Assembly: GCA_947629205.1 (NCBI GenBank)
Contig: CANRCV010000001.1
Location: 19,531 to 83,530, forward strand
From: an uncultured Bacilli bacterium
GTDB lineage: Bacteria; Bacillota_I; Bacilli_A; RF39; UBA660
Reading direction: 5' to 3'
DNA: 64,000 nt
The position numbers and the translations under genes are program-made. Every line of letters begins with the position of its first letter. Position 1 is the stretch's first letter. A model generated the notes under the pieces. The model had not been told where the DNA came from. It was given only the letters and a program-made list of their open reading frames with translations, and did no database searches. This document shows positions 2,552 through 50,551 of this stretch, piece after piece.

Positions 2552-3442
2552 CTAATCACCTGTAATTTCTATTCCTAAAATTTCCAGTATTCTTTCTAAA
2601 TCCTTTTCTCTTTCAAAAGGAATTTCTATTTTATTCTCTTTAATTTTTACTTTAGAACCTATTTTTTCACGCATTACTTTTTCATAAATAGCATAGTGAA
2701 TATTTTTTTCACTTTCTTTTCTTTCAATTTTATTCGTTTTAGCAATATCTTTTTCTTGTAACATTCTTTCTAATTCACGAACACTTAAATTTTCTTGTAA
2801 TACTTTATCTGCTAAATCTTCTATTAAAGATACATCACTTAATTTACTTAAAGCACGAGCATGTCCCATACTTAATTTTCCTGTTTTTACAAGTTCTTTT
2901 GTTGTATTTGGTAATTTTAATAAACCTAGCATATTGGTAACATAACTTCTACTTTTACCAAAACGATGAGCAAATTCTTCTTGTGTCATATGGTTCAGTT
3001 CAATAATATTTTGATAAGCAATTGCTTCATCTATTGGATTTAAATCTTCTCTTTGAATATTTTCAATTAAAGCGATTTCCATCATTTCTTGATCATTAAA
3101 CTCTTTAATAATAGCAGGAATAGTTTCAAGTCCAGCCATCAACGCTGCTTTTGTTCTTCGCTCTCCAGCAATTAATTCATATCCTTTAATTGCTTTTTTA
3201 ACAATAATTGGTTGAACAATTCCATATTCTTTAATACTACTTGCTAATTCTTTAATACTTTCTTCATTAAATGTTTTTCTTGGTTGATAAGGATTGCTTC
3301 TTATTTCCTTTAAAGGAATTTCCACAATATCATTTAATTTGGCAGAATCAACAATCTTTTTTTCAAAATGATTAAAATCAATAATTTCATTGGAAAATAA
3401 TTGCTCTAAACCCTTTCCTAATGCTTTTCTTTTAGTTTCCAT
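2552..3442 (-). CDS. parB: ParB/Spo0J chromosome partitioning protein
   Basis: ParB N-terminal box (...PYQPRK...IVQPIIV...ELIAGERR) followed by an HTH. It overlaps parA by 11 nt. Confidence 0.9.
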   Translation of the reverse strand: METKRKALGKGLEQLFSNEIIDFNHFEKKIVDSAKLNDIVEIPLKEIRSNPYQPRKTFNEESIKELASSIKEYGIVQPIIVKKAIKGYELIAGERRTKAALMAGLETIPAIIKEFNDQEMMEIALIENIQREDLNPIDEAIAYQNIIELNHMTQEEFAHRFGKSRSYVTNMLGLLKLPNTTKELVKTGKLSMGHARALSKLSDVSLIEDLADKVLQENLSVRELERMLQEKDIAKTNKIERKESEKNIHYAIYEKVMREKIGSKVKIKENKIEIPFEREKDLERILEILGIEITGD

Positions 3443-4217
3443 CGCGACTAATCACTTCCTTTGCTAAATTGGCATATGCAAGAGTTGCACGACTTGTGGG
3501 ATCATATACATTTACGGGTTTTCCATGACTAGGAGCTTCCACTAATCGTACAAGTCTTGGAATAATGGTATTAAAAACCTTATTTTTAAAATACTTGCGA
3601 ACCTCTTCCATTACTTGAAGTCCAATATTCGTTCTTCCATCTAACATCGTCAGTAAAACACCTTCAATTCTTAAATCAGGATTCATTTGTGATTGAACTA
3701 AAATAATGGAATTTAAAAGTTGATTAATTCCTTCTAATGCATAATATTCACATTGTACAGGAATAATCACTGAATCACTAGCAACTAAAGCATTCATTGT
3801 AGAAAGACCTAAAGAAGGTTGGCAATCAATTAATATATAATCATAACTATCTTTAATATCTTGAAGACGCATATTTAGTTGATTGTTTTGTTGAAATGTT
3901 TGATCTTCAAACATTTTTTTAATAAATTCAACCTCTACTCCCGCTAAATTTAAAGTAGCAGGAATAACAGATAAATTTTTAAACTTTGTTTTAATGATGG
4001 CATCTTTTATAGAACAAGCTCCAGTAATTACATCATAAATATCATTTTTAAAATCACTCGTATTTAAACCAAGTCCATTAGAAGCATTACCTTGTGAATC
4101 CAAATCAATAAGAAGCGTCTTTTTATTTTCATTTCCTAAAGCAGCAGCCAAGTTAATACTTGTCGTTGTTTTTCCAACACCACCTTTTTGATTTACGATT
4201 GAAATAACTTTTGCCAT
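3432..4217 (-). CDS. parA: ParA/Soj ATPase
   Basis: Deviant Walker A motif KGGVGKTT near the N-terminus. Length and position upstream of parB fit. Confidence 0.9.
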   Translation of the reverse strand: MAKVISIVNQKGGVGKTTTSINLAAALGNENKKTLLIDLDSQGNASNGLGLNTSDFKNDIYDVITGACSIKDAIIKTKFKNLSVIPATLNLAGVEVEFIKKMFEDQTFQQNNQLNMRLQDIKDSYDYILIDCQPSLGLSTMNALVASDSVIIPVQCEYYALEGINQLLNSIILVQSQMNPDLRIEGVLLTMLDGRTNIGLQVMEEVRKYFKNKVFNTIIPRLVRLVEAPSHGKPVNVYDPTSRATLAYANLAKEVISRDGN

Positions 4218-4270: not shown

Positions 4271-4747
4271 TTATTTGTCTTTAATGATTTTAAGAATATT
4301 TTTGATTTCCTCACTTGAAAATATTTTTAATAATTTTAATACCGTTTCCACCTCTTGTAATGTTGTACAATATAATAAAGATGCCATAAGATAAAGTTTT
4401 GGACTAACTTTGATATGACGATAACAATACGGAATATAAAATTCATAATAACAAGGTATTAATATTTCAAAAAAAGAATCTACTTCACGATAACTAAAGT
4501 TAATATAAAATTTTTTATTTTCTACAAATAATTTTTTTGTATCTTCTAAATGAATTTTTAATATTAATTCGGTATTAATAAAAAAATGAAATTCAATTAT
4601 AGAGCTTGATTTATTTAAATCCATTTTATTTATTGGTATATTATTATCTAATCCAAAAAAATTTAATAACACTTTATCAAATTTATAACGATACTTTTTA
4701 TCTTCAAATATTTTCTTAAACTTTTCTTTTGTAATTAACCTTTGCAA
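4271..4747 (-). CDS. hypothetical protein (158 aa), first gene of the parAB-containing transcription unit
   Basis: ORF track. Apparent TTG start preceded by a strong RBS (AAGGAGG, 7 nt spacing). No family recognised. Confidence 0.4.
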   Translation of the reverse strand: MQRLITKEKFKKIFEDKKYRYKFDKVLLNFFGLDNNIPINKMDLNKSSSIIEFHFFINTELILKIHLEDTKKLFVENKKFYINFSYREVDSFFEILIPCYYEFYIPYCYRHIKVSPKLYLMASLLYCTTLQEVETVLKLLKIFSSEEIKNILKIIKDK

Positions 4748-4941: not shown

Positions 4942-6882
4942 TTAATTATTTATTGGTGTAAGAACGATACGGAAACTACGCTTTGATAGTCCACTATCAC
5001 CTTCATTAGAAAAAGCAAATATATTAGCTTGGATACCACTATTACTTTCGCCACCTCTCATAAACCATGGTAATTCGTTACCAATAAAACGAGCCCAACT
5101 TTCATTCCATGAATTAATTAGGTTATTACTTGTACTATATTTTTTCAACCCAAATGGTCCTAATTCTCCTGTGGCATCTCCTAATATTCTTTTATTATAA
5201 GTTGTGTAAACTGAACTATACTCATAAGCATCATAATATTTTTCATTCTCCTCCACTAAATCACTACTCCATATATTGCCATTCATATATCCCGTCACTA
5301 ATTCAAATGCACCCCCTGACATATCATATATTCCGCTATAATTTCCAGTTGTACTTGCAACGTTGCTTTTTTTGTTTTTGTAATTATAGCTTTTACCATT
5401 ATCTTGATTTGGTGTTACTATGTCATAACCATTATATTCAGTATATCCACTTGTTGGCATTTCTATTGCAGCATATCCTGTTACAAAATTTTGACTATTA
5501 TTTATCATTATTTCTGTACATATACCATCTGTACATATTCCATACTTAGAATGCGATAGATAAGCTACTGCTCCCCACTCTGTATTTTTCATCATATGGC
5601 TATCTAATTCTCTTTGATAAGCATAACTAACATCAAACATATTTTTTACTGTTATGCCTCTCCAACTATAAACATTTGGCTTTATAATAACTTTTGATGA
5701 ATTACTTTCATCTTTTTGAGCTTCTGTTGTACTGTTAGCATCTTTATATCCAGTTTCAAACTTTCCTACCCACATTCCTTTTGAACCTTCAAATGCTGTG
5801 AAGGCTGGATGTGTCATCCATTTATCCACTGCACATGAACCATCCTCTCCACTTGCATTTGGTGTTTCACAACTTGTTTCTGTATTTTCTGTATCATCTA
5901 AATCAAATTTAATTTCTATTGTTTGAGCTGCATTCTCATTTAATGGTCCATTTGCATCTGTATATTCTCCCATATTAAAGATTTTATATTTATATTTTGG
6001 TATCCATACAAAATAACTTTCGATGTTATCTTCTGGTATTGTATCTCCTTCTTTGTATTCTTTTGTATTGTCTACTAATATAACAGCATTTGCCCATTCC
6101 TTTTCTTCATAGTTATACCATTCTTCTTTTGTATTGGCTTTGGTTACTTTTCCTGTATCATCTATGATGACTGGTATTAGTTTATCATTGGTAGTTGGTT
6201 CTTCTGCTATTTCATTTGCAGTTAACATAGCTACTGGTTTACTACTTGTTTCTAATACTGGATCTGCTCCATGTAAGATTGGTTCTGTATATTCTGCTAC
6301 GGTATTCATTTTTCCATCTACTACTATTTTACTTATAAAATTTTTATTCATAGCATCATCATTGACGGTGACATCTTCATCCATCCATAGTTTTAATTTA
6401 AATTCTCTACTTTCTTGTCCTTTTAATGTTCCATTCATTAAATCTTTTGCTTCTATTGATGTATAATCATCTCCACTATAGGTGGTTACATCACTTGGAT
6501 ACTCACTTAATATTTGTTTTTGGCCACCATTTAGTTCTACTGCTACATACTTACTATCTAATATATTTTTTTCATTTTCACTACTTTCTTTTAATTTTTC
6601 TAGTTTTAATGAAAAATTAAGAGTTGTATTACATTTATTTTTTATTGTAAAACTATATGGTGTTAATTTTTGTGCTTCTTCATCTGTTATTGGGTATGCT
6701 TTTTCTAAATGAATAGCATCACTTTCATTTTCAAGAATCAAACTTAAACAATCACTTTGAATTTGATTCATACCTTGTTGTTCTGCAGTAGATGTCCACC
6801 ATGCAAAACTGGAACCTATCATTACAATTATTGTAAAGAGCATTCCTATTACTAAATATTTTTTCTTTTTACTTTTTTCCAT
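4942..6882 (-). CDS. exported two-domain protein, paralog 1: SipW/TasA-like N-terminal region plus C-terminal FGE-sulfatase (SUMF1)-like domain
   Basis: N-terminal signal/TM followed by ...SSFAWWTSTAEQ. C-terminal motifs EWGAVAYLSHSKYG, GIYDMSGGAFELVTGY, FMRGGES and SFRIVLTP parallel the FGE motifs SWxDAVAYCNW, GLYDMSGNVWEW, RGGSW and GFRC. RBS GGAGA upstream of the ATG at 6882. Confidence 0.6.
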   Translation of the reverse strand: MEKSKKKKYLVIGMLFTIIVMIGSSFAWWTSTAEQQGMNQIQSDCLSLILENESDAIHLEKAYPITDEEAQKLTPYSFTIKNKCNTTLNFSLKLEKLKESSENEKNILDSKYVAVELNGGQKQILSEYPSDVTTYSGDDYTSIEAKDLMNGTLKGQESREFKLKLWMDEDVTVNDDAMNKNFISKIVVDGKMNTVAEYTEPILHGADPVLETSSKPVAMLTANEIAEEPTTNDKLIPVIIDDTGKVTKANTKEEWYNYEEKEWANAVILVDNTKEYKEGDTIPEDNIESYFVWIPKYKYKIFNMGEYTDANGPLNENAAQTIEIKFDLDDTENTETSCETPNASGEDGSCAVDKWMTHPAFTAFEGSKGMWVGKFETGYKDANSTTEAQKDESNSSKVIIKPNVYSWRGITVKNMFDVSYAYQRELDSHMMKNTEWGAVAYLSHSKYGICTDGICTEIMINNSQNFVTGYAAIEMPTSGYTEYNGYDIVTPNQDNGKSYNYKNKKSNVASTTGNYSGIYDMSGGAFELVTGYMNGNIWSSDLVEENEKYYDAYEYSSVYTTYNKRILGDATGELGPFGLKKYSTSNNLINSWNESWARFIGNELPWFMRGGESNSGIQANIFAFSNEGDSGLSKRSFRIVLTPINN

Positions 6883-7001
6883 ATCATCAATTCTCCTATA
6901 TACAACTTATGATTGTATATAATATATATTTTACAACTTGAGGTTGTTATAGTCAATACAATTTCAAGTTGTATGATAATTTTCATTTAAGAGGTGTAAT
7001 T

Positions 7002-7223
7002 ATGAATATAGAAAGATTAAAAGAAATTCGTGAAGATAAAGATTTATATCAAAAAGACATAGCAAAAGTTTTGAATGTTTCTCAACAACAATATAATAAA
7101 TATGAATTAGGAATTAATTCCATTCCTATAGAAAAATTATATAAACTAGCAGATTTATATGAAACAAGTATTGATTATTTAGTTGGTAGAACCAATGAAA
7201 GAAAACCTTATCCTAAAAAATAA
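7002..7223 (+). CDS. XRE-family helix-turn-helix transcriptional regulator (about 73 aa), divergent from paralog 1
   Basis: Classic XRE HTH (...QKDIAKVLNVSQQQYNKYELG...). Start moved to ATG 7002, which has RBS AAGAGGTG. C-terminal tail GRTNERKPYPKK. Confidence 0.8.
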   Translation: MNIERLKEIREDKDLYQKDIAKVLNVSQQQYNKYELGINSIPIEKLYKLADLYETSIDYLVGRTNERKPYPKK

Positions 7224-7293: not shown

Positions 7294-9174
7294 TTATGGT
7301 GCAAGAACAATACGGAAGCCCATATTACTCTCTTCTCCACCACCTTCACCACAAAAAGCAAAGATTCCCGCTTCTACACCATTATGTTTGATTGAACCAC
7401 GATCCAGCCATGGTCCATTTTTAAACATAAACCAAGCATTATCAAAATGCCAAGAAGAAACATTTCTATCAGCATTACCATTGTAATGCACAAATGGTCC
7501 TAGTTCACCCGTTGCATCTCCTAGTATTCTATTTTTAAATACCAAATTATTTGTAGCATAATTATATACATCGTAATATTTTGAATTTTCTTCTTGATTA
7601 TTAAACGGAAAAGTACTAGTACTAAATCCACTTGAACCAAAGGTAAATCCAGTATTATTTGTTCCTTTTATTACTCCCATTGTATATTCCTTTGATCCAC
7701 CACTCATATCATATATTCCACTATAATTTCCTGTTGTACTTGCAACTTGACTTTTTGAATTTTTGTAATTTATCGTTTTTGTTCCATCAGCACCTAATCC
7801 ACTTGGGGTTTCATAGTCCCTATAGGCACTTAATCCAGTCATAGGTTCTTCTGTTGCCGCATAACCTGTAACAAATGCACTATTATTATTGATTCTTACT
7901 TCTACACATTTATCCCCATCACATGTTCCATACTTTGAATGGGATAAATAAGCTACTGCTCCCCATTCAGTATTCTTCATCATATGACTATCTAAGTCTA
8001 TTTGATAGTTATAACTTGTATCAAACATATTTTTTACTGTTATGTTTCTCCAACTATATACATTGGGTTTGATAATAACTTTTTCTGCTGCCAATTCATT
8101 GTGTTGCATAGCTTCTGTTGCACTTGTTACTCCATCATATCCAGTTTCAAATTTACCTACCCAAAATCCGTTTGTACCAAATGCAGTAAATGCTGATGGT
8201 GTCATCCACTTATCTACTGCACATGAGCCATTCTCTCCACTTGCTGGTGTTGTACATTCTATTGTGTTATCTACTGTATCATAGATTCCAAATTCTATTT
8301 CTATTTCTTGTGACTTTTCTTGATACTCATCTTGAGAAAGTCCATTATATTCTCCCATATTAAAGATTTTGTATTTATATTTTGGTATCCATACAAAATA
8401 ACTTTCTATATTTTCTTCTTTTATAGTTCCATCTTCTTCTATAGTACCATTATCTTTTAAGATAACCGCATTTGCCCATTCTTTTTTAGAATAATCATAC
8501 CATTTTTCTTCTATATTTGCTTTAGTTACTGTTCCATCTGTTTCATTTATTTTTACTGGTATTAAATTATCTTTTAGTACTGGATCTGCTCCATTTAATG
8601 TATCCTCTGTATATACTTTTGCTAGTGTATTTAATGTAGCATTCACTACGACTTTACTTTCAAATGTTTTATTCATGGACTCTTCATCTTCTACTGTTAC
8701 ATGTTCATCCATCCATAGTTTTAAACTATATTGTTTTGATTCTTTTCCATTTAGTATTCCTGTTGCTAGTTCATATCCTTTTTTATATTTTTCTAATGTT
8801 GTTTCTTTTAAACTATTTAATATTCTTTTGGTATTACTATTTAATTGTACTGCTATATATTCTTCTTTTAATGTACTACTATCACTTATACCTAAGTTTA
8901 CTGTATAGTTAATACTTGTATCACATGTATTTTCTACTTTAAAAGTAAATGGTGTTAAATCTTGTGCTTCTTCATCTGTTATTGGGTAGGCTTTTTCTAA
9001 ATGAATAGCATCTTTTTCTTCATTCAGTGATACTTTTAAACATGTACTTGTAATTTGATTAATTCCACTTTGTTCTGCAGTGGATGTCCACCATGCAAAA
9101 CTGGAACCTATAATAAGTGTTAATAAAAGTAATCCCCCAACAACACTGTAAATTACTCTTTCTTTTTTCTTCAT
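7294..9174 (-). CDS. exported TasA-like/FGE-like two-domain protein, paralog 2 (626 aa from ATG 9174)
   Basis: Start trimmed to MKKKERVIYSVVGGLLLL... (signal peptide). It has the same AWWTSTAEQSGINQI motif and the same C-terminal FGE-like motifs (GIYDMSGG, EWGAVAYLSHSKYG, FRIVLAP). Confidence 0.6.
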   Translation of the reverse strand: MKKKERVIYSVVGGLLLLTLIIGSSFAWWTSTAEQSGINQITSTCLKVSLNEEKDAIHLEKAYPITDEEAQDLTPFTFKVENTCDTSINYTVNLGISDSSTLKEEYIAVQLNSNTKRILNSLKETTLEKYKKGYELATGILNGKESKQYSLKLWMDEHVTVEDEESMNKTFESKVVVNATLNTLAKVYTEDTLNGADPVLKDNLIPVKINETDGTVTKANIEEKWYDYSKKEWANAVILKDNGTIEEDGTIKEENIESYFVWIPKYKYKIFNMGEYNGLSQDEYQEKSQEIEIEFGIYDTVDNTIECTTPASGENGSCAVDKWMTPSAFTAFGTNGFWVGKFETGYDGVTSATEAMQHNELAAEKVIIKPNVYSWRNITVKNMFDTSYNYQIDLDSHMMKNTEWGAVAYLSHSKYGTCDGDKCVEVRINNNSAFVTGYAATEEPMTGLSAYRDYETPSGLGADGTKTINYKNSKSQVASTTGNYSGIYDMSGGSKEYTMGVIKGTNNTGFTFGSSGFSTSTFPFNNQEENSKYYDVYNYATNNLVFKNRILGDATGELGPFVHYNGNADRNVSSWHFDNAWFMFKNGPWLDRGSIKHNGVEAGIFAFCGEGGGEESNMGFRIVLAP

Positions 9175-9303
9175 AAAATTCTCACTTTCTTTGCATGTAA
9201 TATGCGTAATACGTATATTACTTTTTAAATTTATTATATACGTAAAACGTATATAAGTCAATGCGTGAGACGTATATAATGTAAAATAAATTCAGTGATT
9301 AAT

Positions 9304-9525
9304 ATGAATATTGAAAGATTAAAAGAAATTAGAGAAGATAGAGATTTAAAGCAAATAGATATAGCAAAATTCCTTAAAGTTACACAAGCTCAATATTGTC
9401 GTTATGAAATGGGAGTTAATATAATTCCATTAGAAAAAATAGATAAACTTGCTGAATTTTATAATACTAGTGTTGATTATTTAATTGGTAGAACCAATGA
9501 AAGAAAACCTTATCCTAAAAAATAG
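9304..9525 (+). CDS. XRE-family HTH regulator 2 (about 73 aa), divergent from paralog 2
   Basis: MNIERLKEIRED...DIAKFLKVTQAQYCRYEMG... Same GRTNERKPYPKK tail. The last ~38 nt of its coding sequence are identical to the matching segment of XRE-1. Confidence 0.8.
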   Translation: MNIERLKEIREDRDLKQIDIAKFLKVTQAQYCRYEMGVNIIPLEKIDKLAEFYNTSVDYLIGRTNERKPYPKK

Positions 9526-34250: not shown

Positions 34251-35621
34251 TTAAAATTTATTTTTGATTTCATTAATCTCTTGTTCCAATTTTTTATTCT
34301 CTTTTATATCTTTTAAAATTTTTTCATAAGCATGCATTACGGTTGTATGATCTTTTCCTCCAAATTCAAATCCAATTCTAGGATAGGTTTCTTCTGTCAT
34401 AATTCTTGCTAAATACATAGCAATTTGTCTTGGATAAGTAAAAGAAGCATTTCTTTTATGTCCTTTTAAATCTTCAACAGTAATATGATAAAACTCTGCT
34501 ACTGCTTTTTGAATATTTTCTATAGAAATAGAAGAATATATATTCACATTTAAATAATCTTTTAATGCTTCATTGGCAAATTCTAAATCAATTTTTTCTG
34601 GTACCATCATTGCTGTATAAGCCATTAATCTTAATATAGTTCCTTCTATAAAACGTACATCATTTTGACAATGATTAGCAATTAAATCTATAACCGTATC
34701 ATCTACCATATTTTCAATACTTTTTCCTTTTAATTTTTCTTTAATAATACGACAACGAAGATCATAATCTGGTGGATCTATATTTACAGGAAGTCCCCAC
34801 ATCAAACGACTTCTAAGTCTTTCTTCTAATTTTTTTAAATCATCAGGACTTTTATCACTACTAATAATAATTTGTTTATTAGCTTGATGTAAGGCATTAA
34901 ATGTATAAAAAAATTCTTCTTGTGTTTTTTCTGCTCCTACTAAATATTGAATATCATCAATAATTAAGACATCCACATTACGATATTTGTTTTTAAATTG
35001 AGTAGAATAATCAATTGCACTTTTACCTTTTTCCATACCAGCTACATTAATATATTCATTCATAAACATATCACTTGTTGTATAAAGTACTTTTTTATCC
35101 GTATTTTCTTCAATAAAATTACCAATTGCATGCATTAAATGGGTTTTACCAATACCACTTTTTCCATAAATAAATAATGGATTATATATTTTTCCTGGTG
35201 CTTCTGCTACAGCCATACCAGCAACTTTTGCAAATTGATTGGTTTTCCCAACTATAAAATTATCAAAATTTAAATCTTTTCTTAAATTACTTTCCCAAAG
35301 AATTTCTACTTGCTCTTTTTCTTCTTTATTTTCTTCTTCTACTTGTTTTGCTTCCATTTTTTCTTGCTTTGGTAATTCACTTTCTAAAACAAAATGAATA
35401 TCATAATTAATACCAGATAAATTAAATAAGGTTTCTTCAATTAAAGAATAATAATTTTCTCCTAACATCTTTTTATGAAGATCCATGGGAACTTGAATGG
35501 TCATTTTATCTTGTTCCACATTCACTAATTTTAATTTATCAAACCAAAGATTATAAGAAGAAGCTTGAATTTCTTTTTTAATGTTACTTAAAAAATTGGT
35601 CCATAACTCATCGACTACCAA
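34251..35621 (-). CDS. dnaA: chromosomal replication initiator DnaA
   Basis: AAA+ Walker A GKSGIGKTHL. C-terminal DnaA-box-binding domain ...YPRIGFEFGGKDHTTVMHA... Confidence 0.95.
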   Translation of the reverse strand: MVVDELWTNFLSNIKKEIQASSYNLWFDKLKLVNVEQDKMTIQVPMDLHKKMLGENYYSLIEETLFNLSGINYDIHFVLESELPKQEKMEAKQVEEENKEEKEQVEILWESNLRKDLNFDNFIVGKTNQFAKVAGMAVAEAPGKIYNPLFIYGKSGIGKTHLMHAIGNFIEENTDKKVLYTTSDMFMNEYINVAGMEKGKSAIDYSTQFKNKYRNVDVLIIDDIQYLVGAEKTQEEFFYTFNALHQANKQIIISSDKSPDDLKKLEERLRSRLMWGLPVNIDPPDYDLRCRIIKEKLKGKSIENMVDDTVIDLIANHCQNDVRFIEGTILRLMAYTAMMVPEKIDLEFANEALKDYLNVNIYSSISIENIQKAVAEFYHITVEDLKGHKRNASFTYPRQIAMYLARIMTEETYPRIGFEFGGKDHTTVMHAYEKILKDIKENKKLEQEINEIKNKF

Positions 35622-39471: not shown

Positions 39472-39480
39472 ATTTTACTA

Positions 39481-39545
39481 CATAGAGTAATTTTTTAATA
39501 AAAGTATAAAAAAATTACTCCACAGCGTAATTTTTTGACAAAATT
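39481..39545 (+). terminator. two tandem near-identical hairpins (TTACTACATAGAGTAA/TTACTCCACAGCGTAA), each followed by a T-run, at the mnmE/ATPase junction
   Basis: Read from the sequence. Likely an mnmE terminator duplicated. Confidence 0.45.
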
Positions 39546-39586
39546 AATATTTTTGATTATAATAAGAATAGAAAAGAGGAATATGT

Positions 39587-40792
39587 ATGATTATTCGTGA
39601 AAGATATTTAAAATTAATAAGACCATTTTATAATCAAGAATTAATTAAAGTATTAATTGGACTTAGACGTTCTGGTAAGTCTGTAATTTTAACGCAAATT
39701 ATTGATGAACTCAAAAAAGATAATATAGATGATCAACATATTATTTATATTAATTTTGAAGATTATGATTATGATGAATTAACGAATGCCAAAAGTTTAA
39801 ATAAATATATAAAAGAAAAAATGATAGATCAAAAGAAATATTATTTATTTTTTGATGAAATTCAAAATGTTGAATCTTGGGAAAAAGTTATAAATTCTTT
39901 TAGAGCAACTAAAAATGTATCCATATTTATAACAGGATCAAATAGTGATTTATTATCAAGTGATTTAGCAACGCATATTGCAGGAAGATATGTAAGTTTT
40001 AAAATAACTCCATTTACTTTTAGTGAAGTTTGCGAACTTTTAGAAATAAAAGATAAAGAGAAAATAGAAGAAGCCTTTAAAGATTATATAAAATGGGGTG
40101 GAATGCCTCAAAGATTTATGCAAACAGATGATTTATCTAAAAAAACTTATTTAAATGATATATATGATTCTATTATTATAAAAGATATAGTGAAAAGATT
40201 TAATATTAAAGATATAGATTTATTAAATAAAATTGTAACCTATGTTTTAACAACACCTGCTCAAACTTTTTCTCCTGAAAGTTTAAAAAAATATTTTGAA
40301 AGTGTTTCAAGAGGTGTATCTCTTGAAACGATTTATAACTATTTAGATTATATAACAAGAGCCAATTTAATATTTAAAGCCGAAAGATATGATATTAGAG
40401 GAAAAAGAATTTTAACAGGTAAATATAAGTATTATTTAACGGATTTAGGTTTTACTAATATACTAAGTGAAGGAAAAAAAGAAAAACTTGGTGCTTATTT
40501 AGAAAATATTGTTTATAATGAATTAATTGCAAGAGGCTATAATGTAAACATAGGAAATTTAGATAATGGAGAAATTGATTTCATCGCAACAAAATTTGAT
40601 GAAAAAATTTATGTTCAAGTAGCTTATTTACTTGCAGATGAATCGGTTATTCAAAGAGAGTTTGATGCTTATAAAAAAATAGAAGATAATTTTCCTAAAT
40701 ATGTATTATCTATGGATCATTTCGATTTTTCCAAAGATGGAATTATTCATAAAAACATTATAGATTGGTTATTAGAAGAAGAAAAAAACTAG
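39587..40792 (+). CDS. AAA+ ATPase with C-terminal DUF4143 (COG1373 family, PD-(D/E)xK-like C-terminal module), paralog 1
   Basis: Walker A GLRRSGKS. Conserved ...FITGSNS... The C-terminal ...GEIDFIA...YVQVAY... is typical of DUF4143. RBS AAGAGGAA. The gene sits between mnmE and mnmG. Confidence 0.75.
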   Translation: MIIRERYLKLIRPFYNQELIKVLIGLRRSGKSVILTQIIDELKKDNIDDQHIIYINFEDYDYDELTNAKSLNKYIKEKMIDQKKYYLFFDEIQNVESWEKVINSFRATKNVSIFITGSNSDLLSSDLATHIAGRYVSFKITPFTFSEVCELLEIKDKEKIEEAFKDYIKWGGMPQRFMQTDDLSKKTYLNDIYDSIIIKDIVKRFNIKDIDLLNKIVTYVLTTPAQTFSPESLKKYFESVSRGVSLETIYNYLDYITRANLIFKAERYDIRGKRILTGKYKYYLTDLGFTNILSEGKKEKLGAYLENIVYNELIARGYNVNIGNLDNGEIDFIATKFDEKIYVQVAYLLADESVIQREFDAYKKIEDNFPKYVLSMDHFDFSKDGIIHKNIIDWLLEEEKN

Positions 40793-40805
40793 AAGGTGAA
40801 AACGT

Positions 40806-43412: not shown

Positions 43413-45071
43413 ATGAATATCGACAAAAATATTCTAGAAATACCAATTGAGGACATTATTCCCAATCGTTTTCAACCAAGACTTTCATTTAACGAAGAAG
43501 GAATTACAGAACTAGCAGAGTCTATAAAACAACATGGGATTATTCAACCCCTTGTCGTAAGAAAACTTGGAGATAAGTATGAAATTATAGCTGGAGAAAG
43601 AAGATATAAAGCCGCTACAATGGCTGGTTTAACAAAAGTTCCAGTTATTATTTCTAATATAGATGATAATAAAAGTGCAGAGGTGGCTCTAGTGGAAAAT
43701 ATACAAAGAAGAAATTTAACAGCAATTGAAGAAGCAAAATCATATAAAAATCTGTTAGATAGAGGATATTTAACACAAGAACAACTTGCAAATAAAATGG
43801 GTGTATCTCAAAGTTCTATTGCCAATAAGCTACGTTTATTAAACTTAGATGAAGAGGTACAAGAAGCTTTATTAAATGAAAAAATAAGTGAAAGACATGC
43901 GAGAGCATTACTTGCACTTGAAGATAAAGAAGAACAAAAGAAATGGTTAAAAAGAATTATTGATGAAAGATTAACAGTAAGACAATTAGATTTAGAACTT
44001 AAAAAATTACAAGAAAATGGAGATTCTGCTGATAGTGATGAAATTAAATTAGTCAATATTAATCCTAATTTAGATGAAATCGTATCCAATGCAGAAGATA
44101 TTGTTGTACAAAGAGCACCACATGATGTTGCGAGTATGTTAATTCCAGAGGTACAAGAAGAACCAAAAGAAGAAATAAAAGAAGAACAAGAAACAAAACC
44201 TTCTAATAAATTCTTTAATTTTTTAGAAAATGAAGAAGCAAACATGAGTGTCATTGAACCAGATGAAATTTTAGATACATTTACAACTACTTCTGTAATG
44301 GAAAATCCTATAGAATCTACTGTAGAAGAACAACCAAAAGAACCAGTTTTAAATAATGATTCTCCTACTATAAATGAAGAGGTAACACCAATAGAAAATC
44401 CGTTTACAGATACACCAATGATAAATACCCCACAAGAAGAAAATAAAGTAGATTCAGTTGAATTATTAGATGAATTAGATGATGAAGAAGATTTACAACC
44501 AATGAAACCAGAATTAAATTCATTTATTACAGAAGATATTGTAAATGAAATTGCTAATGAACCAGATGAAGAAGCAAATGATTCTGCTATGGCAAATATC
44601 TTTGAAACTCCATCTACTGAACCAATTAATAATGAAAATACAATTGTAGAAGAAACACCAAGTATAGATTCTGTTCCTGTAATAGAACCTACACCTATAG
44701 AAGAACCAGTAAATACTCAACAAGAAGAAACTAAAACAAATGAAGAAGAACCATTTAAATCTATTTTCTTTAATCATGAAGAAGAAAAACCAGAAGAAGT
44801 AGTTTCTCCTATTGAAGATAATAAAATAGAAGAAATAGAACCAACAGTAGAAGAAAATATTGTTGATCCATTAGATAGTATTGTAACTTTAGAACCTAAT
44901 TATCAACAAAAACAAGAAGAATTAGCAGGAAGAGATTTAAAAACAGCTATTAATACTGTTCGTAATACCATTAAAGAGTTAGAAAATAAAGGCTTTCTAA
45001 TTGAAACCGAAGAGGCTGATTTAGAAGATGTTTATCATATAACCATAAAAATTGATAAAGATAATAAATAA
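43413..45071 (+). CDS. noc: ParB-family protein in the Noc position (after rsmG), carrying an unusually long (~300 aa) acidic/Pro-rich low-complexity insertion before a conserved C-terminal segment
   Basis: ParB N-terminal box (...RFQPR...IIQPLVV...IIAGERR) plus an HTH. Residues about 250-510 are E/P/T/N-rich. 552 aa against ~280 aa for typical Noc. Confidence 0.7.
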   Translation: MNIDKNILEIPIEDIIPNRFQPRLSFNEEGITELAESIKQHGIIQPLVVRKLGDKYEIIAGERRYKAATMAGLTKVPVIISNIDDNKSAEVALVENIQRRNLTAIEEAKSYKNLLDRGYLTQEQLANKMGVSQSSIANKLRLLNLDEEVQEALLNEKISERHARALLALEDKEEQKKWLKRIIDERLTVRQLDLELKKLQENGDSADSDEIKLVNINPNLDEIVSNAEDIVVQRAPHDVASMLIPEVQEEPKEEIKEEQETKPSNKFFNFLENEEANMSVIEPDEILDTFTTTSVMENPIESTVEEQPKEPVLNNDSPTINEEVTPIENPFTDTPMINTPQEENKVDSVELLDELDDEEDLQPMKPELNSFITEDIVNEIANEPDEEANDSAMANIFETPSTEPINNENTIVEETPSIDSVPVIEPTPIEEPVNTQQEETKTNEEEPFKSIFFNHEEEKPEEVVSPIEDNKIEEIEPTVEENIVDPLDSIVTLEPNYQQKQEELAGRDLKTAINTVRNTIKELENKGFLIETEEADLEDVYHITIKIDKDNK

Positions 45072-45097
45072 AGTGCTAAAAAAAACTAGCACTTTTT
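45072..45097. terminator. bidirectional terminator hairpin AGTGCTA-A8-TAGCACT followed by a T-run, between the noc-like gene and the RHH gene
   Basis: Read from the sequence. It overlaps the RHH stop codon. Confidence 0.5.
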
Positions 45098-45283
45098 ATT
45101 TTTATCCTCTTTTTCTTCCTCTTCTAATTCATTTAATACATATTCACAAGCTTGAATTACAAATCTTGAAAAATTAGATTCAGTTCCTTCTAAATATTTT
45201 TCAATTTTTTCAATTAATGGTAAAGGAAACCTAATTGTTTTTGTTTCACTTTCTTTTCTATCTATGTTTAATTTAAAAGCCAT
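45086..45283 (-). CDS. small ribbon-helix-helix (Arc/CopG-like) DNA-binding protein with an acidic tail, divergent from paralog 3
   Basis: N-terminal beta-strand KTIRFPLPL, then helices IEKIEKYL and NFSRFVIQACEYVL. RBS GGTGA. Confidence 0.5.
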   Translation of the reverse strand: MAFKLNIDRKESETKTIRFPLPLIEKIEKYLEGTESNFSRFVIQACEYVLNELEEEEKEDKNKKC

Positions 45284-45330
45284 ATTTTCACCACTTTCTT
45301 ATTACAATAAATTTTATAATAAAAATGCAA

Positions 45331-45346
45331 TGCAATATGTATTGCA
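45331..45346. promoter_or_regulatory. 16-bp perfect inverted repeat TGCAATA-TG-TATTGCA in the divergent RHH/paralog-3 promoter region (candidate operator)
   Basis: Read from the sequence. A further TGCAA half-site lies 2 bp upstream. Confidence 0.5.
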
Positions 45347-45387
45347 AAATGTAATACAAAAATGGTAAAATCAAAATAGGTGAGAAT

Positions 45388-47268
45388 ATGGAAAAAAGTA
45401 AAACAAAATATTTGATTATAGTAGGAATACTTATTATGATGTTAATTGCTATAGGTTCGGGTTATGCCTGGTGGACGTCTACTGCAGAACAAAGTGGAAT
45501 TAATCAAATTCAAAGTGATTGTTTAAAAATATCTTATACAGATGATAACCCTATAAAATTAGATACAACGTATCCTTTAACAGATAAAGAAGGAGAAGCA
45601 TTAACTCCTTATACATTTACTATACAAAATACTTGTTCTAACGCTATAGATTATACTATAAATTTAGGTATAAGTGATACTAATACTTTAAATGATGAAT
45701 ATGTTGCAGTCAAGTTAAATGATAATACGAAAAGAATATTAGATAGTTTAAAACAAACAAAAATTAAAAACTACAATAAATCTTATGAACTAGCAACAGG
45801 AATACTAAATGGAAGTGAATCAAAAGAATTTAGTTTAAGACTATGGATGGATGAACATGTAACATTAAGTGATGATGCAATAAATAAAACATTCTCAAGT
45901 AAAGTAGTAGTAGAAGCAACCTTAAATACATTAGCAAAAGTATATACAGATGATGAATTAAATGGAGCAGATCCAGTATTAAAAGATAATTTAATACCAG
46001 TAAAAATAAATGAAACAGATGGAACAGTAACTAAAGCAAATATAGAAGAAGAATGGTACAACTATAAAAATAAAGAATGGGCAAATGCCGTTATATTAAA
46101 AGATAATGGAACTATAGAAGAAGATGGAACTATCAAAGAAGAGAGTATAGAAAGTTATTTTGTATGGATACCAAAGTATAAATACAAAATCTTTAATATG
46201 GGAGAATATAATGGATTAAGTGAAGGAGCATATGAAGAAAAATCTCAAGAAATAGAAATTGAATTTGGAATCTATGATACAGTAAATAACACAATTGAGT
46301 GTACAACACCACCAAGTGGAGAAAATGGATCATGTGCAGTAGATAAATGGATGACACCATCAGCATTTACAAGTTTTGCTACAAATGGATTCTGGGTAGG
46401 TAAATTTGAAACTGGATATGATGGAGCAACTAATGATACTTTTGCTACAGGTACTACATGTAAGAATGAGGTTAATGTAACTAATGTTTCAAAAATTATA
46501 ATTAAACCAAATTCTTATTCATGGAGATGTATTAATATGGCAAATATGTATAAAAATTCATACAATTATCAAAGAGACTTAGATAGTCATATGATGAAGA
46601 ATACAGAGTGGGGAGCAGTTGCCTATCTATCACATTCCAAATATGGAACATGTGATAGTGGTAAATGTACAGAGATTAGATTGAATAACAATACAAATTA
46701 TATTACTGGATATGCAGCAGTTAATCAACCAGTAGGTGGACTAGATGTTTATAAAGAATATATAGGTACCACGCCTGGTATAGATAACGATAAAACTTAT
46801 AACTATAAAAATAAAAAAAGTACAATAGCAAGCACAACTGGAAATTATAGTGGAATTTATGACTTATCAGGAGATTGTTGGGAAATCGTAATGGGGGTTA
46901 CAACTAGTGCCACTAGTGCAAAAGATGCAACTTTAGAAAATATACAATTAGGAACATCAGGATTAACTAAAGATGATATAAAAGATAGAAAATATGTAGA
47001 TTTATATACAAGTGGTACATACTTACAATATAATAGAAGAATACTTGGTGATGCAACAGGAGAGATGGGAACGTTTAGATTATCACCTGAAAAGAGTGGT
47101 AGGATACGAGGATCTTGGTATAATGATCTAGGATCACAAATTGTTTCAAACAGCTCTTTTATTCGAGGTGGATCGTTTGGGCAAGGTGTGGAAGGTGGAT
47201 CTTTTGAGTTTTCTATGGGTGTTTATATTAGAAATGATTTTTCTTTCCGTATAGTCTTAACACCATAA
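45388..47268 (+). CDS. exported TasA-like/FGE-like two-domain protein, paralog 3 (626 aa)
   Basis: Signal peptide followed by GSGYAWWTSTAEQSGINQIQSDC. C-terminal motifs EWGAVAYLSHSKYG, GIYDLSGDCWEIV, FIRGGSFGQG and FSFRIVLTP give the closest FGE-like match of the three paralogs. Confidence 0.65.
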   Translation: MEKSKTKYLIIVGILIMMLIAIGSGYAWWTSTAEQSGINQIQSDCLKISYTDDNPIKLDTTYPLTDKEGEALTPYTFTIQNTCSNAIDYTINLGISDTNTLNDEYVAVKLNDNTKRILDSLKQTKIKNYNKSYELATGILNGSESKEFSLRLWMDEHVTLSDDAINKTFSSKVVVEATLNTLAKVYTDDELNGADPVLKDNLIPVKINETDGTVTKANIEEEWYNYKNKEWANAVILKDNGTIEEDGTIKEESIESYFVWIPKYKYKIFNMGEYNGLSEGAYEEKSQEIEIEFGIYDTVNNTIECTTPPSGENGSCAVDKWMTPSAFTSFATNGFWVGKFETGYDGATNDTFATGTTCKNEVNVTNVSKIIIKPNSYSWRCINMANMYKNSYNYQRDLDSHMMKNTEWGAVAYLSHSKYGTCDSGKCTEIRLNNNTNYITGYAAVNQPVGGLDVYKEYIGTTPGIDNDKTYNYKNKKSTIASTTGNYSGIYDLSGDCWEIVMGVTTSATSAKDATLENIQLGTSGLTKDDIKDRKYVDLYTSGTYLQYNRRILGDATGEMGTFRLSPEKSGRIRGSWYNDLGSQIVSNSSFIRGGSFGQGVEGGSFEFSMGVYIRNDFSFRIVLTP

Positions 47269-47284
47269 TGAACAAAAATGCAAA

Positions 47285-47328
47285 AAATGTCAATTTTGTA
47301 TTCTGTGGAATACAAAATTGACATTTTC
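47285..47328 (+). terminator. 20-bp perfect-stem hairpin AAAATGTCAATTTTGTATTC-TGTG-GAATACAAAATTGACATTTT followed by a T-rich tract
   Basis: Read from the sequence. The stem is unusually long for a terminator. Confidence 0.55.
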
Positions 47329-47368
47329 TTTTCATTGTGCTACCATTTTAAATAGTGAGGGGATACAA

Positions 47369-48577
47369 ATGATTATTCGTGAAAACTATTTAAAAAAAAT
47401 AAGACCATTTTATGATGTTGATTTAATTAAAGTTATAACGGGAATTAGAAGATGTGGAAAAACAATTACTTTTTTACAAATTATGGATGAAATAAAAGAA
47501 AAAGGTGTTCCAGAAGAAAATATTATTTATATAAACTTTGAATTAAAAAAATATTCTTTTATTAAAAATGATGATGATTTATATCAATACATAAAAGAGA
47601 ATATGAAAAATAAAAAGAAATATTATTTATTTTTGGATGAAATTCAAAATGTTTTAAAATGGGAATTAACAATTAATTCACTTAAAGCCGAATATAATGA
47701 CAAAATATCTATTTTTATAACGGGTTCCAATAGTGATTTATTATCTAGTGAACTTGCTACCCATATTGCTGGGAGATATGTAAGTTTTCAAATACATCCT
47801 TTTACTTTTGAAGAGGTATGTGAATTTAAAAAAATCAAAAATAAAAATAAATATGAATTAGAAAGTGAATTTGAAAATTATTTATTATGGGGTGGAATGC
47901 CACAAAGACTTATATTTAAAGAAAAAGAGGAAATAAATGCTTATTTTATAGATGTACTTAATTCTATTATAAAAGATGTTGTTGAAAGATTTAAAATAAA
48001 AGATATTGATTTATTTAATCGTATTTTAGAATATATTATTACAACACCTTCTCAAATTTTTTCTGTAGAAAGTATTCAAAAGTATTTTGAATCAGAAAAT
48101 AGAAAAGTAACCAAAAATACAATATATAATTATTTAGATTATTTATGTAAAACTTTTTTAATTCAAAAAGTAGAACGTTATGATGTACGTGGTAAAAAAA
48201 TATTGCAAGGAAAATTTAAGTATTATTTAACGGATTTAGGATTAGGTCAAATAATGAATGCTTCTAAAAGAGTTCAATTAGGAGCTTATTTAGAAAATGT
48301 TGTTTATAATGAATTAATTTATCGTGGATATGATGTTAAAATTGGAACGCTTCCTAAAGGCGAAATTGACTTTATTGCTGAAAAAGATGGAGCAAAAGAA
48401 TATTATCAAGTTTGTCTTTATGTGGGTGATGATGAAAAAATAATTGATCGAGAATTTAATACATATAAAAATATTAAAGATAATTATCCTAAATATGTAA
48501 TTTCAATGGATAAATTTGATTTATCAAGTGAAGGAATTATCCATAAGAATATAATTGATTGGCTATTAAACAAGTAA
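47369..48577 (+). CDS. AAA+ ATPase with C-terminal DUF4143, paralog 2 (~60% identical to the copy at 39587-40792)
   Basis: Walker A GIRRCGKT. Collinear with the other copy throughout. Start trimmed to ATG 47369 (RBS GTGAGGGG). Confidence 0.75.
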   Translation: MIIRENYLKKIRPFYDVDLIKVITGIRRCGKTITFLQIMDEIKEKGVPEENIIYINFELKKYSFIKNDDDLYQYIKENMKNKKKYYLFLDEIQNVLKWELTINSLKAEYNDKISIFITGSNSDLLSSELATHIAGRYVSFQIHPFTFEEVCEFKKIKNKNKYELESEFENYLLWGGMPQRLIFKEKEEINAYFIDVLNSIIKDVVERFKIKDIDLFNRILEYIITTPSQIFSVESIQKYFESENRKVTKNTIYNYLDYLCKTFLIQKVERYDVRGKKILQGKFKYYLTDLGLGQIMNASKRVQLGAYLENVVYNELIYRGYDVKIGTLPKGEIDFIAEKDGAKEYYQVCLYVGDDEKIIDREFNTYKNIKDNYPKYVISMDKFDLSSEGIIHKNIIDWLLNK

Positions 48578-48616: not shown

Positions 48617-50551
48617 TTATTCTTCTTTAACATCTACAGTAATTGTGTTTCCTTCACTTCCTCTTACATAGTAAAAAAGACTTGCTTTTCCATTGGTAGC
48701 TGGTTTCCCTGTTACTGGATCTTGTAATATACCAATAACATTAGCAGGAGTTTCATACCAATGTTCTTCTTTTCCCATTAAATAATCTTCTATTGTTTCA
48801 ACCCATATATTTTTAGCCCATTTAGAGGCATTATCATTAATTTCAGTAGCATCATCATAACCAAGCCATATCATAAGTAATGCATCTTTATTATAACCAA
48901 CTGTCCAATAATCGGTTTTAGTTGTTCCTGTTTTTAAAGCATATTTTCGACTCATTTTACTGGCAATAGAAAGAGCAGTTGGGGAGGTATAACTTTGAAA
49001 GTTTTTATTACTGGTATTTGCTAGCATTTCATTTAATATATAAACATAGTTATAATTTAAAACCATTTTCTTTTTATTTTTATGTTGGTATAAAACATGA
49101 CCATTTAAATCTTCTACTTTTTCTATTAAGTAATTATCTGTTAAATATCCACCATTTGCTAAAGTAGTATATCCATTTGCAAATCCTAGCATAGACATTT
49201 CACTCGTTCCTAAAGCAAGAGATGGATTTGCAATTAATTCTTCTTTTATTCCCATTTTTTCTGCTGTATCTACTAAAGTTTCTTCTCCTAAAAAAAGATG
49301 TGTTTTCACAGCATAGATGTTATCGGAGTAAGCAATAGCTGCTGCCATGGTAATATTTTTATTTGCATAAATATCATTAAAATTAGAAGGATGATAAACT
49401 TGATTATTGGAAAATACAAAGTTTGTAGGTTCACTTACAAAAGTAGAAGAAGAGGTAAGTCCATTTTCTAAAGCGGCATAGTAAAGAAATGGTTTCATTG
49501 TTGAACCTACTTGTCTTTTGGCTTGTAAGGCTCGATTAAATTGACTTTCTTGATAGTTCATTCCTCCTGTTAAAGCTTTTATAGCTCCTGTTTCGGGATC
49601 AATTAAAATACTAGCTACTTGTAATTTTTCATCTTTTACAGTATCCAAAATTTCTTTTTCTAGTTTTGTTTGCGCATTCATATCTAAAGTAGTATATATT
49701 TTTAAACTACCTGCATCTAGTAGAGAGGTAGGTATATTATCTAACGTATCTAATTCTTTTAAAACGGCATCTTGAAAGTACATAAGCATTTGTAAGTTAT
49801 TGGTCTCTCTTTTACCATATATTTCTATTTTTTCTTCAAATAAGTGATTGTAAGTTTCTTCATCAATTACTTTATTATGAAGCATCGCTTGAGCAACAAT
49901 TTTGGCTCTTTCAATACATGCATCATAATGATTTACTGGATTATAATTAGATGGATTTTTAGGAATACCTGCAAGCATTAAAGACTCTTCTAATGTTAAA
50001 TCTTTTGCTTGTTTATGAAAATAGTATTGACTTGCATTTTCTATACCATAATTTCCTGCTCCAAAATTAATCGTATTTAAATATCCTTCTAGTATTTCCT
50101 CTTTACTATAATGAACCTCTAATTCTAAAGTTAAAAAAGCTTCTTCTAATTTTCTTTTCCATGTTTGATTAAAATCTAAATACATATTTTTAATATATTG
50201 TTGACTTATAGTAGATGCTCCTTGAACAATACTTTTATTTTTTATATTCAAAGCCATAGCTTTTATAATTCTTAAATAATCAAATCCTTGATGTTTATAA
50301 AAATTTTTATCTTCTACATTAATAACAGCATCTTTTAAATAAGGAGAAATATTTTCTAAATTTACCCATTCACTTGCTCCACTTCCTTGATAGACTAAAT
50401 TATTTTCATTATCATATATATACATTTGTCCAACACTTGTTAATTCTAATTTAGGACTTAAAAAGGCATATGTATATAAACCAGCCATAACAATAATAAA
50501 AGAAAGAAAGGAAAAGATAAGTATTTTTAGTAGAAACTTAAATTTATGCAT
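48617..50551 (-). CDS. class A penicillin-binding protein (glycosyltransferase GT51 plus transpeptidase)
   Basis: N-terminal TM. GT51 motifs (...EDKNFYKHQGFD..., ...QGASTISQQ...). Transpeptidase SxxK (STMKP). Confidence 0.85.
   Translation of the reverse strand: MHKFKFLLKILIFSFLSFIIVMAGLYTYAFLSPKLELTSVGQMYIYDNENNLVYQGSGASEWVNLENISPYLKDAVINVEDKNFYKHQGFDYLRIIKAMALNIKNKSIVQGASTISQQYIKNMYLDFNQTWKRKLEEAFLTLELEVHYSKEEILEGYLNTINFGAGNYGIENASQYYFHKQAKDLTLEESLMLAGIPKNPSNYNPVNHYDACIERAKIVAQAMLHNKVIDEETYNHLFEEKIEIYGKRETNNLQMLMYFQDAVLKELDTLDNIPTSLLDAGSLKIYTTLDMNAQTKLEKEILDTVKDEKLQVASILIDPETGAIKALTGGMNYQESQFNRALQAKRQVGSTMKPFLYYAALENGLTSSSTFVSEPTNFVFSNNQVYHPSNFNDIYANKNITMAAAIAYSDNIYAVKTHLFLGEETLVDTAEKMGIKEELIANPSLALGTSEMSMLGFANGYTTLANGGYLTDNYLIEKVEDLNGHVLYQHKNKKKMVLNYNYVYILNEMLANTSNKNFQSYTSPTALSIASKMSRKYALKTGTTKTDYWTVGYNKDALLMIWLGYDDATEINDNASKWAKNIWVETIEDYLMGKEEHWYETPANVIGILQDPVTGKPATNGKASLFYYVRGSEGNTITVDVKEE

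Follow-up and report, generated by a model that had tools for sequence, protein, structure and literature searches.

The variable proteins of diversity-generating retroelements (DGRs), among them TaqVP (5VF4), TvpA (2Y3C) and Mtd (1YU0), have a C-type-lectin fold. Ribbon-helix-helix (RHH) repressors such as Arc, Mnt, CopG and omega are small proteins that act on arrays of short repeats. PDC-S01 is an unvalidated single-gene candidate, very common in bacteria and archaea, in which an ATPase is combined with PD-(D/E)XK (PMC12988326), the class to which DUF4143 has been assigned (PMC3424549). Here we describe a locus in a 64,000-nt stretch of contig CANRCV010000001.1 from an uncultured Bacilli bacterium. 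This stretch (the window) is the origin region of a Firmicute chromosome and has 27% GC. The locus consists of a gene for a 65-residue YlcI/YnfO-family protein, a putative RHH repressor (45086-45283, minus strand), a head-to-head gene for a 626-residue exported or membrane-anchored protein (paralog 3; 45388-47268, plus strand) and, downstream, a gene for a 402-residue ATPase with AAA_14 and DUF4143 domains (47369-48577, plus strand). With a probability of about 0.62, we read the locus as two unrelated units: a regulator with its lectin-fold surface-protein cargo, and a separate PDC-S01-type ATPase.

Paralog 3 is, as the original prediction held, the third copy of an exported protein. It is 64% and 54% identical (alignment A1; 63% and 50% by BLASTP) to paralog 2 (626 residues; 7294-9174, minus strand) and paralog 1 (646 residues; 4942-6882, minus strand), both of which have a divergent XRE/HTH_3-type gene (9295-9525 and 6969-7223, respectively, both on the plus strand). 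By sequence alone, paralog 3 matched nothing in Pfam, NCBIfam, PHROGs, PADLOC or PDB (phmmer), and the sole PDB profile match for the cargo was TaqVP. Residues 1-27 form a K-rich N-terminus and a hydrophobic helix that ends in an invariant Ala27. Since family members align with a small residue at -3 relative to this alanine, its context is compatible with a signal-peptidase site. A TasA-like beta-sandwich (residues ~44-180; 45517-45927) precedes a module with the C-type-lectin/formylglycine-generating-enzyme (FGE) fold (residues ~185-626; 45940-47265). As in DGR variable proteins, this C-type-lectin fold carries the variable region: residues 581-626 (47128-47265, plus strand) align with the variable regions of two DGR-linked relatives, described below.

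The public gene call for paralog 3 (P0001, 610 residues) starts at an internal methionine within the hydrophobic helix (45388-45435 region). A GGTGA ribosome-binding site precedes an earlier ATG, at 45388, and the N-terminus that results from use of this ATG aligns with those of the paralogs. The deposited annotation therefore probably truncates the signal or anchor.

Uncultured gut Bacilli encode a very large family of exported binding proteins with a lectin fold, to which the cargo belongs; this family has neither a name nor a Pfam or NCBIfam model. We counted more than 7,700 clusters at 90% identity, 11,360 representatives at 50% identity with E<=1e-3 (2,869 of them with E<=1e-30) and more than 566 matches in species-representative genomes. 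The set of related loci used throughout consists of the 79 best-matching loci that we kept, with ~110 family open reading frames (ORFs). Nearly all are from metagenome-assembled genomes (MAGs) of uncultured gut "Bacilli" or "Tenericutes" (rabbit, mouse, chicken and human), while four are in MAGs labelled Lachnospiraceae or Muribaculaceae. Genomes carry many copies, tandem arrays among them. The conserved core is the C-terminal ~440 residues, with N-termini frequently swapped. The cargo would be displayed on the cell surface and would bind ligands there.

Other members vary the same parts. Three giant proteins, P0289 (4516 residues), P0242 (3713 residues) and P0327 (4340 residues), contain 6-10 tandem copies of the C-terminal module. 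A fourth paralog, P0049, lies on the same 91-kb contig outside the window; it has 502 residues, is 55% identical and lacks the TasA-like N-domain, retaining the hydrophobic N-terminus and the lectin-fold module. Type IV pilin-like genes with an N-terminal KKGFTLVELL motif occur a few kb from family members in four loci (L035, L037, L055 and L061).

Two relatives in Hadza MAGs (L025 and L032) link the family to DGRs. In both, the last ~142 nt of the family gene is repeated 356 nt downstream with 89-91% identity, and an RVT_1 reverse transcriptase of 342-343 residues follows the repeat. The order in both (L025, 109-4345; L032, 6001-10243) is target gene, template repeat, MutS_I-like ORF, avd-like ORF and reverse transcriptase. 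Within the pairs of variable region and template repeat (142/141 nt), all mismatches fall at template adenines (16 of 16 in L025 and 12 of 12 in L032). Because the mismatches are confined to adenines and a reverse transcriptase is adjacent, these family members are real DGR targets. The C-terminal module of the cargo is homologous to DGR variable proteins. Both cassettes look complete and cellular in these gut Bacilli MAGs, with variable region and template repeat at 45-53% GC in genes of ~32% GC. A further locus, L019, has a decayed template, and a template repeat is nearby in only 2-3 of ~93 family members examined.

The reverse transcriptase beside the family member in L027 was also considered as part of a DGR. 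It was ruled out by its group II intron maturase motif and the lack of a template repeat. This group II intron-type reverse transcriptase/maturase (103-1176), which is cut at the contig end, lies 77 bp upstream of the family member, which is followed at a distance of a few kb by an integrase and a ParA/ParB pair. This copy may adjoin a mobile element.

The window copies differ from TaqVP, TvpA and Mtd in that neither a template repeat nor a reverse transcriptase is close to them, and their diversity lies between fixed paralogs. Paralogs 3 and 2 are ~90% identical in the central region. Across the last ~140 alignment columns, which include the residue 581-626 segment, identity among the three window paralogs is 17-50% (40-column windows). 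We propose that the window cargo is not hypermutated and that its diversity would be held by several fixed paralogs differing mainly in the part that aligns with the variable region. It is very unlikely that paralog 3 is an active target of a remote retroelement outside the window. Bona fide DGR targets do exist in the family, the visible genome is only 64 kb, and GC is raised in the variable-region-aligned segment, to 37% from 29.8% for the whole gene in paralog 3 and to 35-42% from 30-31% across the three paralogs. However, the variable regions of the DGR-linked relatives reach 52-53% GC, far above paralog 3, template repeats are rare in the family, and the 64-kb window contains neither a reverse-transcriptase-like ORF nor a second, template-like copy of the 3′ end of any paralog.

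The fold of the C-terminal module is also that of FGE-sulfatase (SUMF1) proteins, Pfam PF03781, which include PvdO, SUMF2, PorK/GldJ and the C-domain of EgtB. Comparison values were 11.0 for PvdO, 10.0 for TvpA, 9.3 for SUMF2, 8.9 for Mtd and 8.8 for PorK. Paralog 3 differs from the FGE-sulfatase proteins in falling below the Pfam threshold, in its predicted extracellular location with a signal or anchor, and in having no conserved catalytic cysteines. PF03781 did not match paralog 3 even at E 10, and its best score within the cargo family was 17.5 bits (P0053), below the cutoff of 23.3. No cysteine was invariant or near-invariant among 34 aligned family members, indicating that the catalytic cysteine pair of FGE is absent. 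An enzymatic C-terminal domain, of formylglycine-generating-enzyme or sulfoxide-synthase type, in place of a binding module is therefore extremely improbable, the more so as the family tolerates DGR hypermutation of this region.

The N-terminal half of the comparison is with TasA/camelysin, the B. subtilis biofilm fibre protein that is repressed by the XRE-type regulator SinR. The window cargo has a TasA-like domain and is a candidate for fibre formation. Neither the Peptidase_M73 models nor the SipW-cognate signal models of Pfam and NCBIfam matched the cargo, and no SipW-like peptidase gene was found near any family member searched. Unlike in the TasA/SinR pair, the regulators of the window cargo are not SinR orthologues. 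Neither a TasA-like N-domain nor a dedicated divergent regulator is among the features described for TaqVP, TvpA or Mtd.

The 65-residue protein matched NCBIfam NF041551 (YlcI/YnfO family) at 36.5 bits, above the cutoff of 30, and phrog_949 at 1.5e-9; one of its homologues is named "YlcI/YnfO family protein" by NCBI. An AlphaFold2 monomer has an extended segment followed by helices at residues 21-30 and 38-63, and the protein aligns in register with CopG, Arc and Mnt. An RHH fold is plausible, though not statistically confirmed. In its small size, its extended segment with two helices and the array of short phased repeats upstream of its gene, the protein resembles Arc, Mnt, CopG and omega and the uncharacterised YlcI/YnfO (DUF3950) family. 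Our search found no functional literature on YlcI/YnfO or DUF3950. Gene calls for the identical protein exist in NCBI and in five ENA samples, with noc, small gene and paralog in the same order, and homologues elsewhere are 65-86% identical. The gene lies between the convergent noc gene and the divergent gene for the 626-residue exported protein; no small co-directional toxin gene of the kind expected in a type II toxin-antitoxin pair is beside it.

The 65-codon gene and the paralog 3 gene were found head-to-head as predicted, with a spacer of 104 bp. Within this spacer, the original prediction had described a 16-bp perfect palindrome, TGCAATA-TG-TATTGCA (45331-45346). Its position and its perfect 7-bp arms stand; the 2-bp centre is not self-complementary, so the perfection does not extend to 16 bp, and such a palindrome alone could arise by chance in DNA of 27% GC. 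It is the junction of repeats 2 and 3 in an array of three 12-bp phased repeats (45323-45358, minus strand), which read TGTATTACATTT, TGCAATACATAT and TGCATTGCATTT on the RHH-sense strand. Upstream of 38 non-redundant homologous genes, GCAATR occurs on the sense strand 2.0 times per 130 nt against a background of 0.118, a 17-fold enrichment. Its dominant spacings across these loci are 12 and 24-25 nt, and its positions cluster at -84 to -60 and at -36. Judging from this comparison, the conserved feature is a phased TGCAATRC array and not the palindrome as such. A promoter-proximal copy of an operator-like motif, TTGTAATAAG on the RHH-sense strand (45298-45307, minus strand), corresponds to a GCAATACAAT-type motif that homologous loci carry between -20 and -36 relative to the start codon. 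A literature search found no earlier description of a TGCAATRC operator motif with 12-bp phasing.

Since the array is conserved upstream of homologues, autoregulation of the 65-codon gene through it is well supported at the level of sequence. The array also covers the -35 element (45342-45347) of the one good promoter-like site ahead of paralog 3 (TTGCAA and TAAAAT, separated by 18 nt that end in TG; 45342-45371, plus strand). This site, like our other promoter calls, is a match in a consensus scan that returns equally many sites in shuffled sequence. From this geometry, we infer that the 65-residue protein co-represses the cargo. By binding the array within the 104 bp that serve both genes as control region, it would repress transcription from its own promoter and block access to the -35 element of paralog 3, thereby giving this copy a local switch of its own.

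The control regions of the two XRE-paralog pairs have inverted repeats of their own that are unrelated to the RHH array. Those at 9197-9280 include ATATACGTAAAACGTATAT and GTAATATGCGTA/TACGTATATTAC, and the region at 6900-6989 contains ATACAACTT...AAGTTGTAT.

Pairing of cargo with a regulator recurs in relatives. A divergent small DNA-binding gene accompanies 9 of ~69 testable cargo relatives (six XRE and three RHH-type, of the CopG type); two of the three RHH-type genes, in a P-type ATPase/der context, are homologous to the 65-codon gene. Genes for homologues of the RHH protein with 65-86% identity precede family members, in divergent orientation, in at least three further chromosomal contexts: nusG/secE, trxB-lgt-uvrA and P-type ATPase/der. 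The closest (74-86%) are paired with the N-termini of family members at nusG/secE (L165-168 and L176) and at trxB-lgt-uvrA (L173/174). The small gene and paralog 3 are thus a real, recurring pair, and since close RHH homologues accompany family members at three or more chromosomal sites, this pair is a portable module. The RHH family also accompanies other genes: among 80 more distant metagenomic loci with 52-70% identical homologues, the divergent neighbour was a family member in only one. In the other 79 it was diverse, often a lipoprotein or another exported protein.

One small regulator-trxB-lgt-uvrA site carries different cargo in different genomes, a family member in L173 and L174 and a 525-residue protein in L169 and L170. 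The latter has the same kind of TasA-like N-terminus (...SFAYFTSN...) and a different C-terminal domain with a faint DUF6273 match. It appears that the regulator and the N-domain stay constant while the cargo behind them is swapped.

The locus had been described as an inserted island, a claim for which we found no direct support. Searches around it returned no target-site duplications or flanking repeats, there is no composition shift, and no integrase is present. We also looked for noc, the penicillin-binding protein (PBP) gene, parA, rsmG and argS as neighbours in the 79 related loci; since no shared context was found, this test of insertion was uninformative. Mobility is suggested by a single observation, namely that related genomes carry the RHH-cargo pair at different sites.

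The same observation would fit a remnant of a prophage or other mobile element, in which the pair is a repressor-plus-moron cassette and the small protein a phage-type regulator. The small protein matches phrog_949 and a family named after E. coli prophage genes, and its distant homologues often lie beside lipoproteins and other exported proteins. However, integrase, phage structural or replication genes, flanking repeats and a composition shift are all missing here, 2.9 million viral contigs contain no relative of the cargo family, and the arrangement beside noc is the same in five independent samples. We consider this origin unlikely and favor a chromosomal regulator-cargo module.

The second unit begins beyond a strong hairpin. 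The original prediction placed a 20-bp perfect-stem hairpin at 47285-47328; the 20 perfect pairs and 4-nt loop are there, one base away, at 47284-47327 (plus strand), 16 nt past the paralog 3 stop codon. Folding gave -28 kcal/mol (z = -6.35), a stability reached by 0 of 200 shuffles. This hairpin, which was also found in the terminator scan, is probably the terminator of paralog 3; a check for dispersed copies showed it to be unique in the window. The descending arm of the hairpin contains the -35 element of a promoter-like site for the ATPase (TTGACA and TACCAT, separated by 17 nt that contain TG; 47318-47346, plus strand). The best start of the ATPase is the ATG at 47369, with a GAGGGG ribosome-binding site, and the ORF ends at 48577.

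The ATPase matched Pfam AAA_14 (1.8e-34) and DUF4143 (1.3e-18) and, over residues 1-401, the PADLOC model PDLC04787 (PDC-S01; E 1.3e-143). Its sequence contains a Walker A motif (GIRRCGKT), a Walker B motif (LFLDE) and a nuclease-type motif (EIDFIAEK). As the original prediction stated, it is paralogous to the ATPase that splits mnmE and mnmG (39587-40792, plus strand): the two are 60% identical, both start with MIIRE, and the second also has a full-length PDC-S01 match (3e-150). Thus, both share the full-length match and the architecture, AAA_14 with DUF4143/PD-(D/E)XK, of PDC-S01. Each has its own promoter-like site directly behind the terminator of the upstream gene, which for the mnmE-mnmG copy is a consensus TTGACA-17-TATAAT at 39535-39563. 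That copy is wedged between its neighbours (39472-40805), genes that are normally adjacent.

The original prediction had grouped the cargo family, the alternative regulators and the recurring DUF4143 ATPase into one modular accessory system, and had offered as its alternative that the ATPase is an independent defence-like element. The regulator-cargo part is real, with XRE or CopG-type genes as alternatives. The link to the ATPase fails, as no DUF4143 homologue lies within 6 kb of the ~110 family ORFs in any of the 79 loci. For a single system in which the ATPase is coupled to the exported protein speak the two DUF4143 paralogs within 10 kb, one of them directly downstream of paralog 3 on the same strand. 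Against it, beyond the co-occurrence data, the mnmE-mnmG ATPase stands apart from any family member, paralog 3 is divided from the downstream ATPase by a strong hairpin and a separate promoter-like site, and the match is to a single-gene candidate found across bacteria and archaea (PMC12988326). The co-occurrence data already largely refute the one-system model, which we regard as highly improbable. Instead, the ATPase is independent of the regulator-cargo module, and the same evidence makes the defence-like alternative the better reading. The ATPase would be monocistronic, transcribed from its own promoter behind the paralog terminator, and would most likely be a stand-alone gene, defensive or selfish, whose product acts on nucleic acid.

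Several observations weigh against our reading of the locus as a switched cargo next to an unrelated PDC-S01 gene. The KTIRFP DNA-reading segment and the motif are near-invariant in the RHH family whatever the neighbour, so the array may serve autoregulation only, with co-regulation of the cargo incidental. The consensus scan that supplies the occluded -35 element yields as many promoter-like sites in shuffled sequence. A DGR may be present elsewhere in the genome, beyond the 64-kb window. The anti-phage activity of PDC-S01 is experimentally unvalidated (PMC12988326), and both ATPases in the window sit among oriC-proximal housekeeping genes (mnmE|mnmG and noc|PBP), with no recognisable defence island.

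The locus lies between a noc/ParB-like gene (43413-45071) and a gene for a class A PBP (48617-50551, minus strand). A terminator-like hairpin that the scan returned for both strands (45070-45095; 9-10 pairs with T-runs) separates the convergent noc-like and RHH-like genes. The noc/ParB-like protein has 552 residues, a length unusual for Noc: ParB_N and HTH_ParB (Pfam) fall within the first 200 residues and are followed by a ~300-residue low-complexity stretch rich in Glu, Pro and Asn, and then by a short conserved C-terminus.

dnaA is at 34251-35621 (minus strand), and the GC-skew switch places oriC near 35.7 kb. Paralog 3 is across oriC from the XRE-paired copies, as predicted, and paralogs 1 and 3 are inverted repeats that flank it. 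On the dnaA side, ~30 kb from oriC, parB and parA (2552-4217, minus strand) adjoin paralogs 1 and 2, and noc adjoins paralog 3 on the opposite side. A 158-residue ORF (4271-4747, minus strand) separates parA from paralog 1; it matched no Pfam or NCBIfam model and had no homologue among the loci retrieved. Inversion between paralogs 1 and 3 would restore the order noc-(RHH, paralog, orf158)-parA-parB, which resembles the noc-soj-spo0J string of B. subtilis. This arrangement suggests a paralog-mediated inversion that was symmetric about the origin.

A more speculative reading, which we consider unlikely, treats the three regulator-cargo cassettes of the oriC region, together with the fourth paralog, as a "hard-wired" set of alternative lectin-fold adhesins. 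Individual portable repressors (XRE, XRE and YlcI/YnfO-type) would keep each of them off until it is released separately, the TasA-like N-domains might form surface fibres by donor-strand exchange, and recombination between inverted paralogs could invert the origin region. If true, transcriptional switching would be the counterpart here of the DGR hypermutation to which relatives subject this protein family.

The locus does not overturn current understanding. It combines known kinds of elements: a DGR-type lectin-fold family without a database model, a YlcI/YnfO-type regulator with a newly visible operator, and a PDC-S01 gene. The widespread PDC-S01 candidate can sit within the most conserved gene string of the chromosome (mnmE-mnmG and noc). 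The uncharacterised YlcI/YnfO family gains a concrete and testable candidate operator, TGCAATRC with 12-bp phasing. A family without a Pfam or NCBIfam model can now be read as a DGR-type lectin-fold binding module, and it offers a natural comparison of two routes to diversity, hypermutation by a retroelement and repertoires of fixed paralogs. It is also a starting point for asking what small-genome gut Bacilli attach to.

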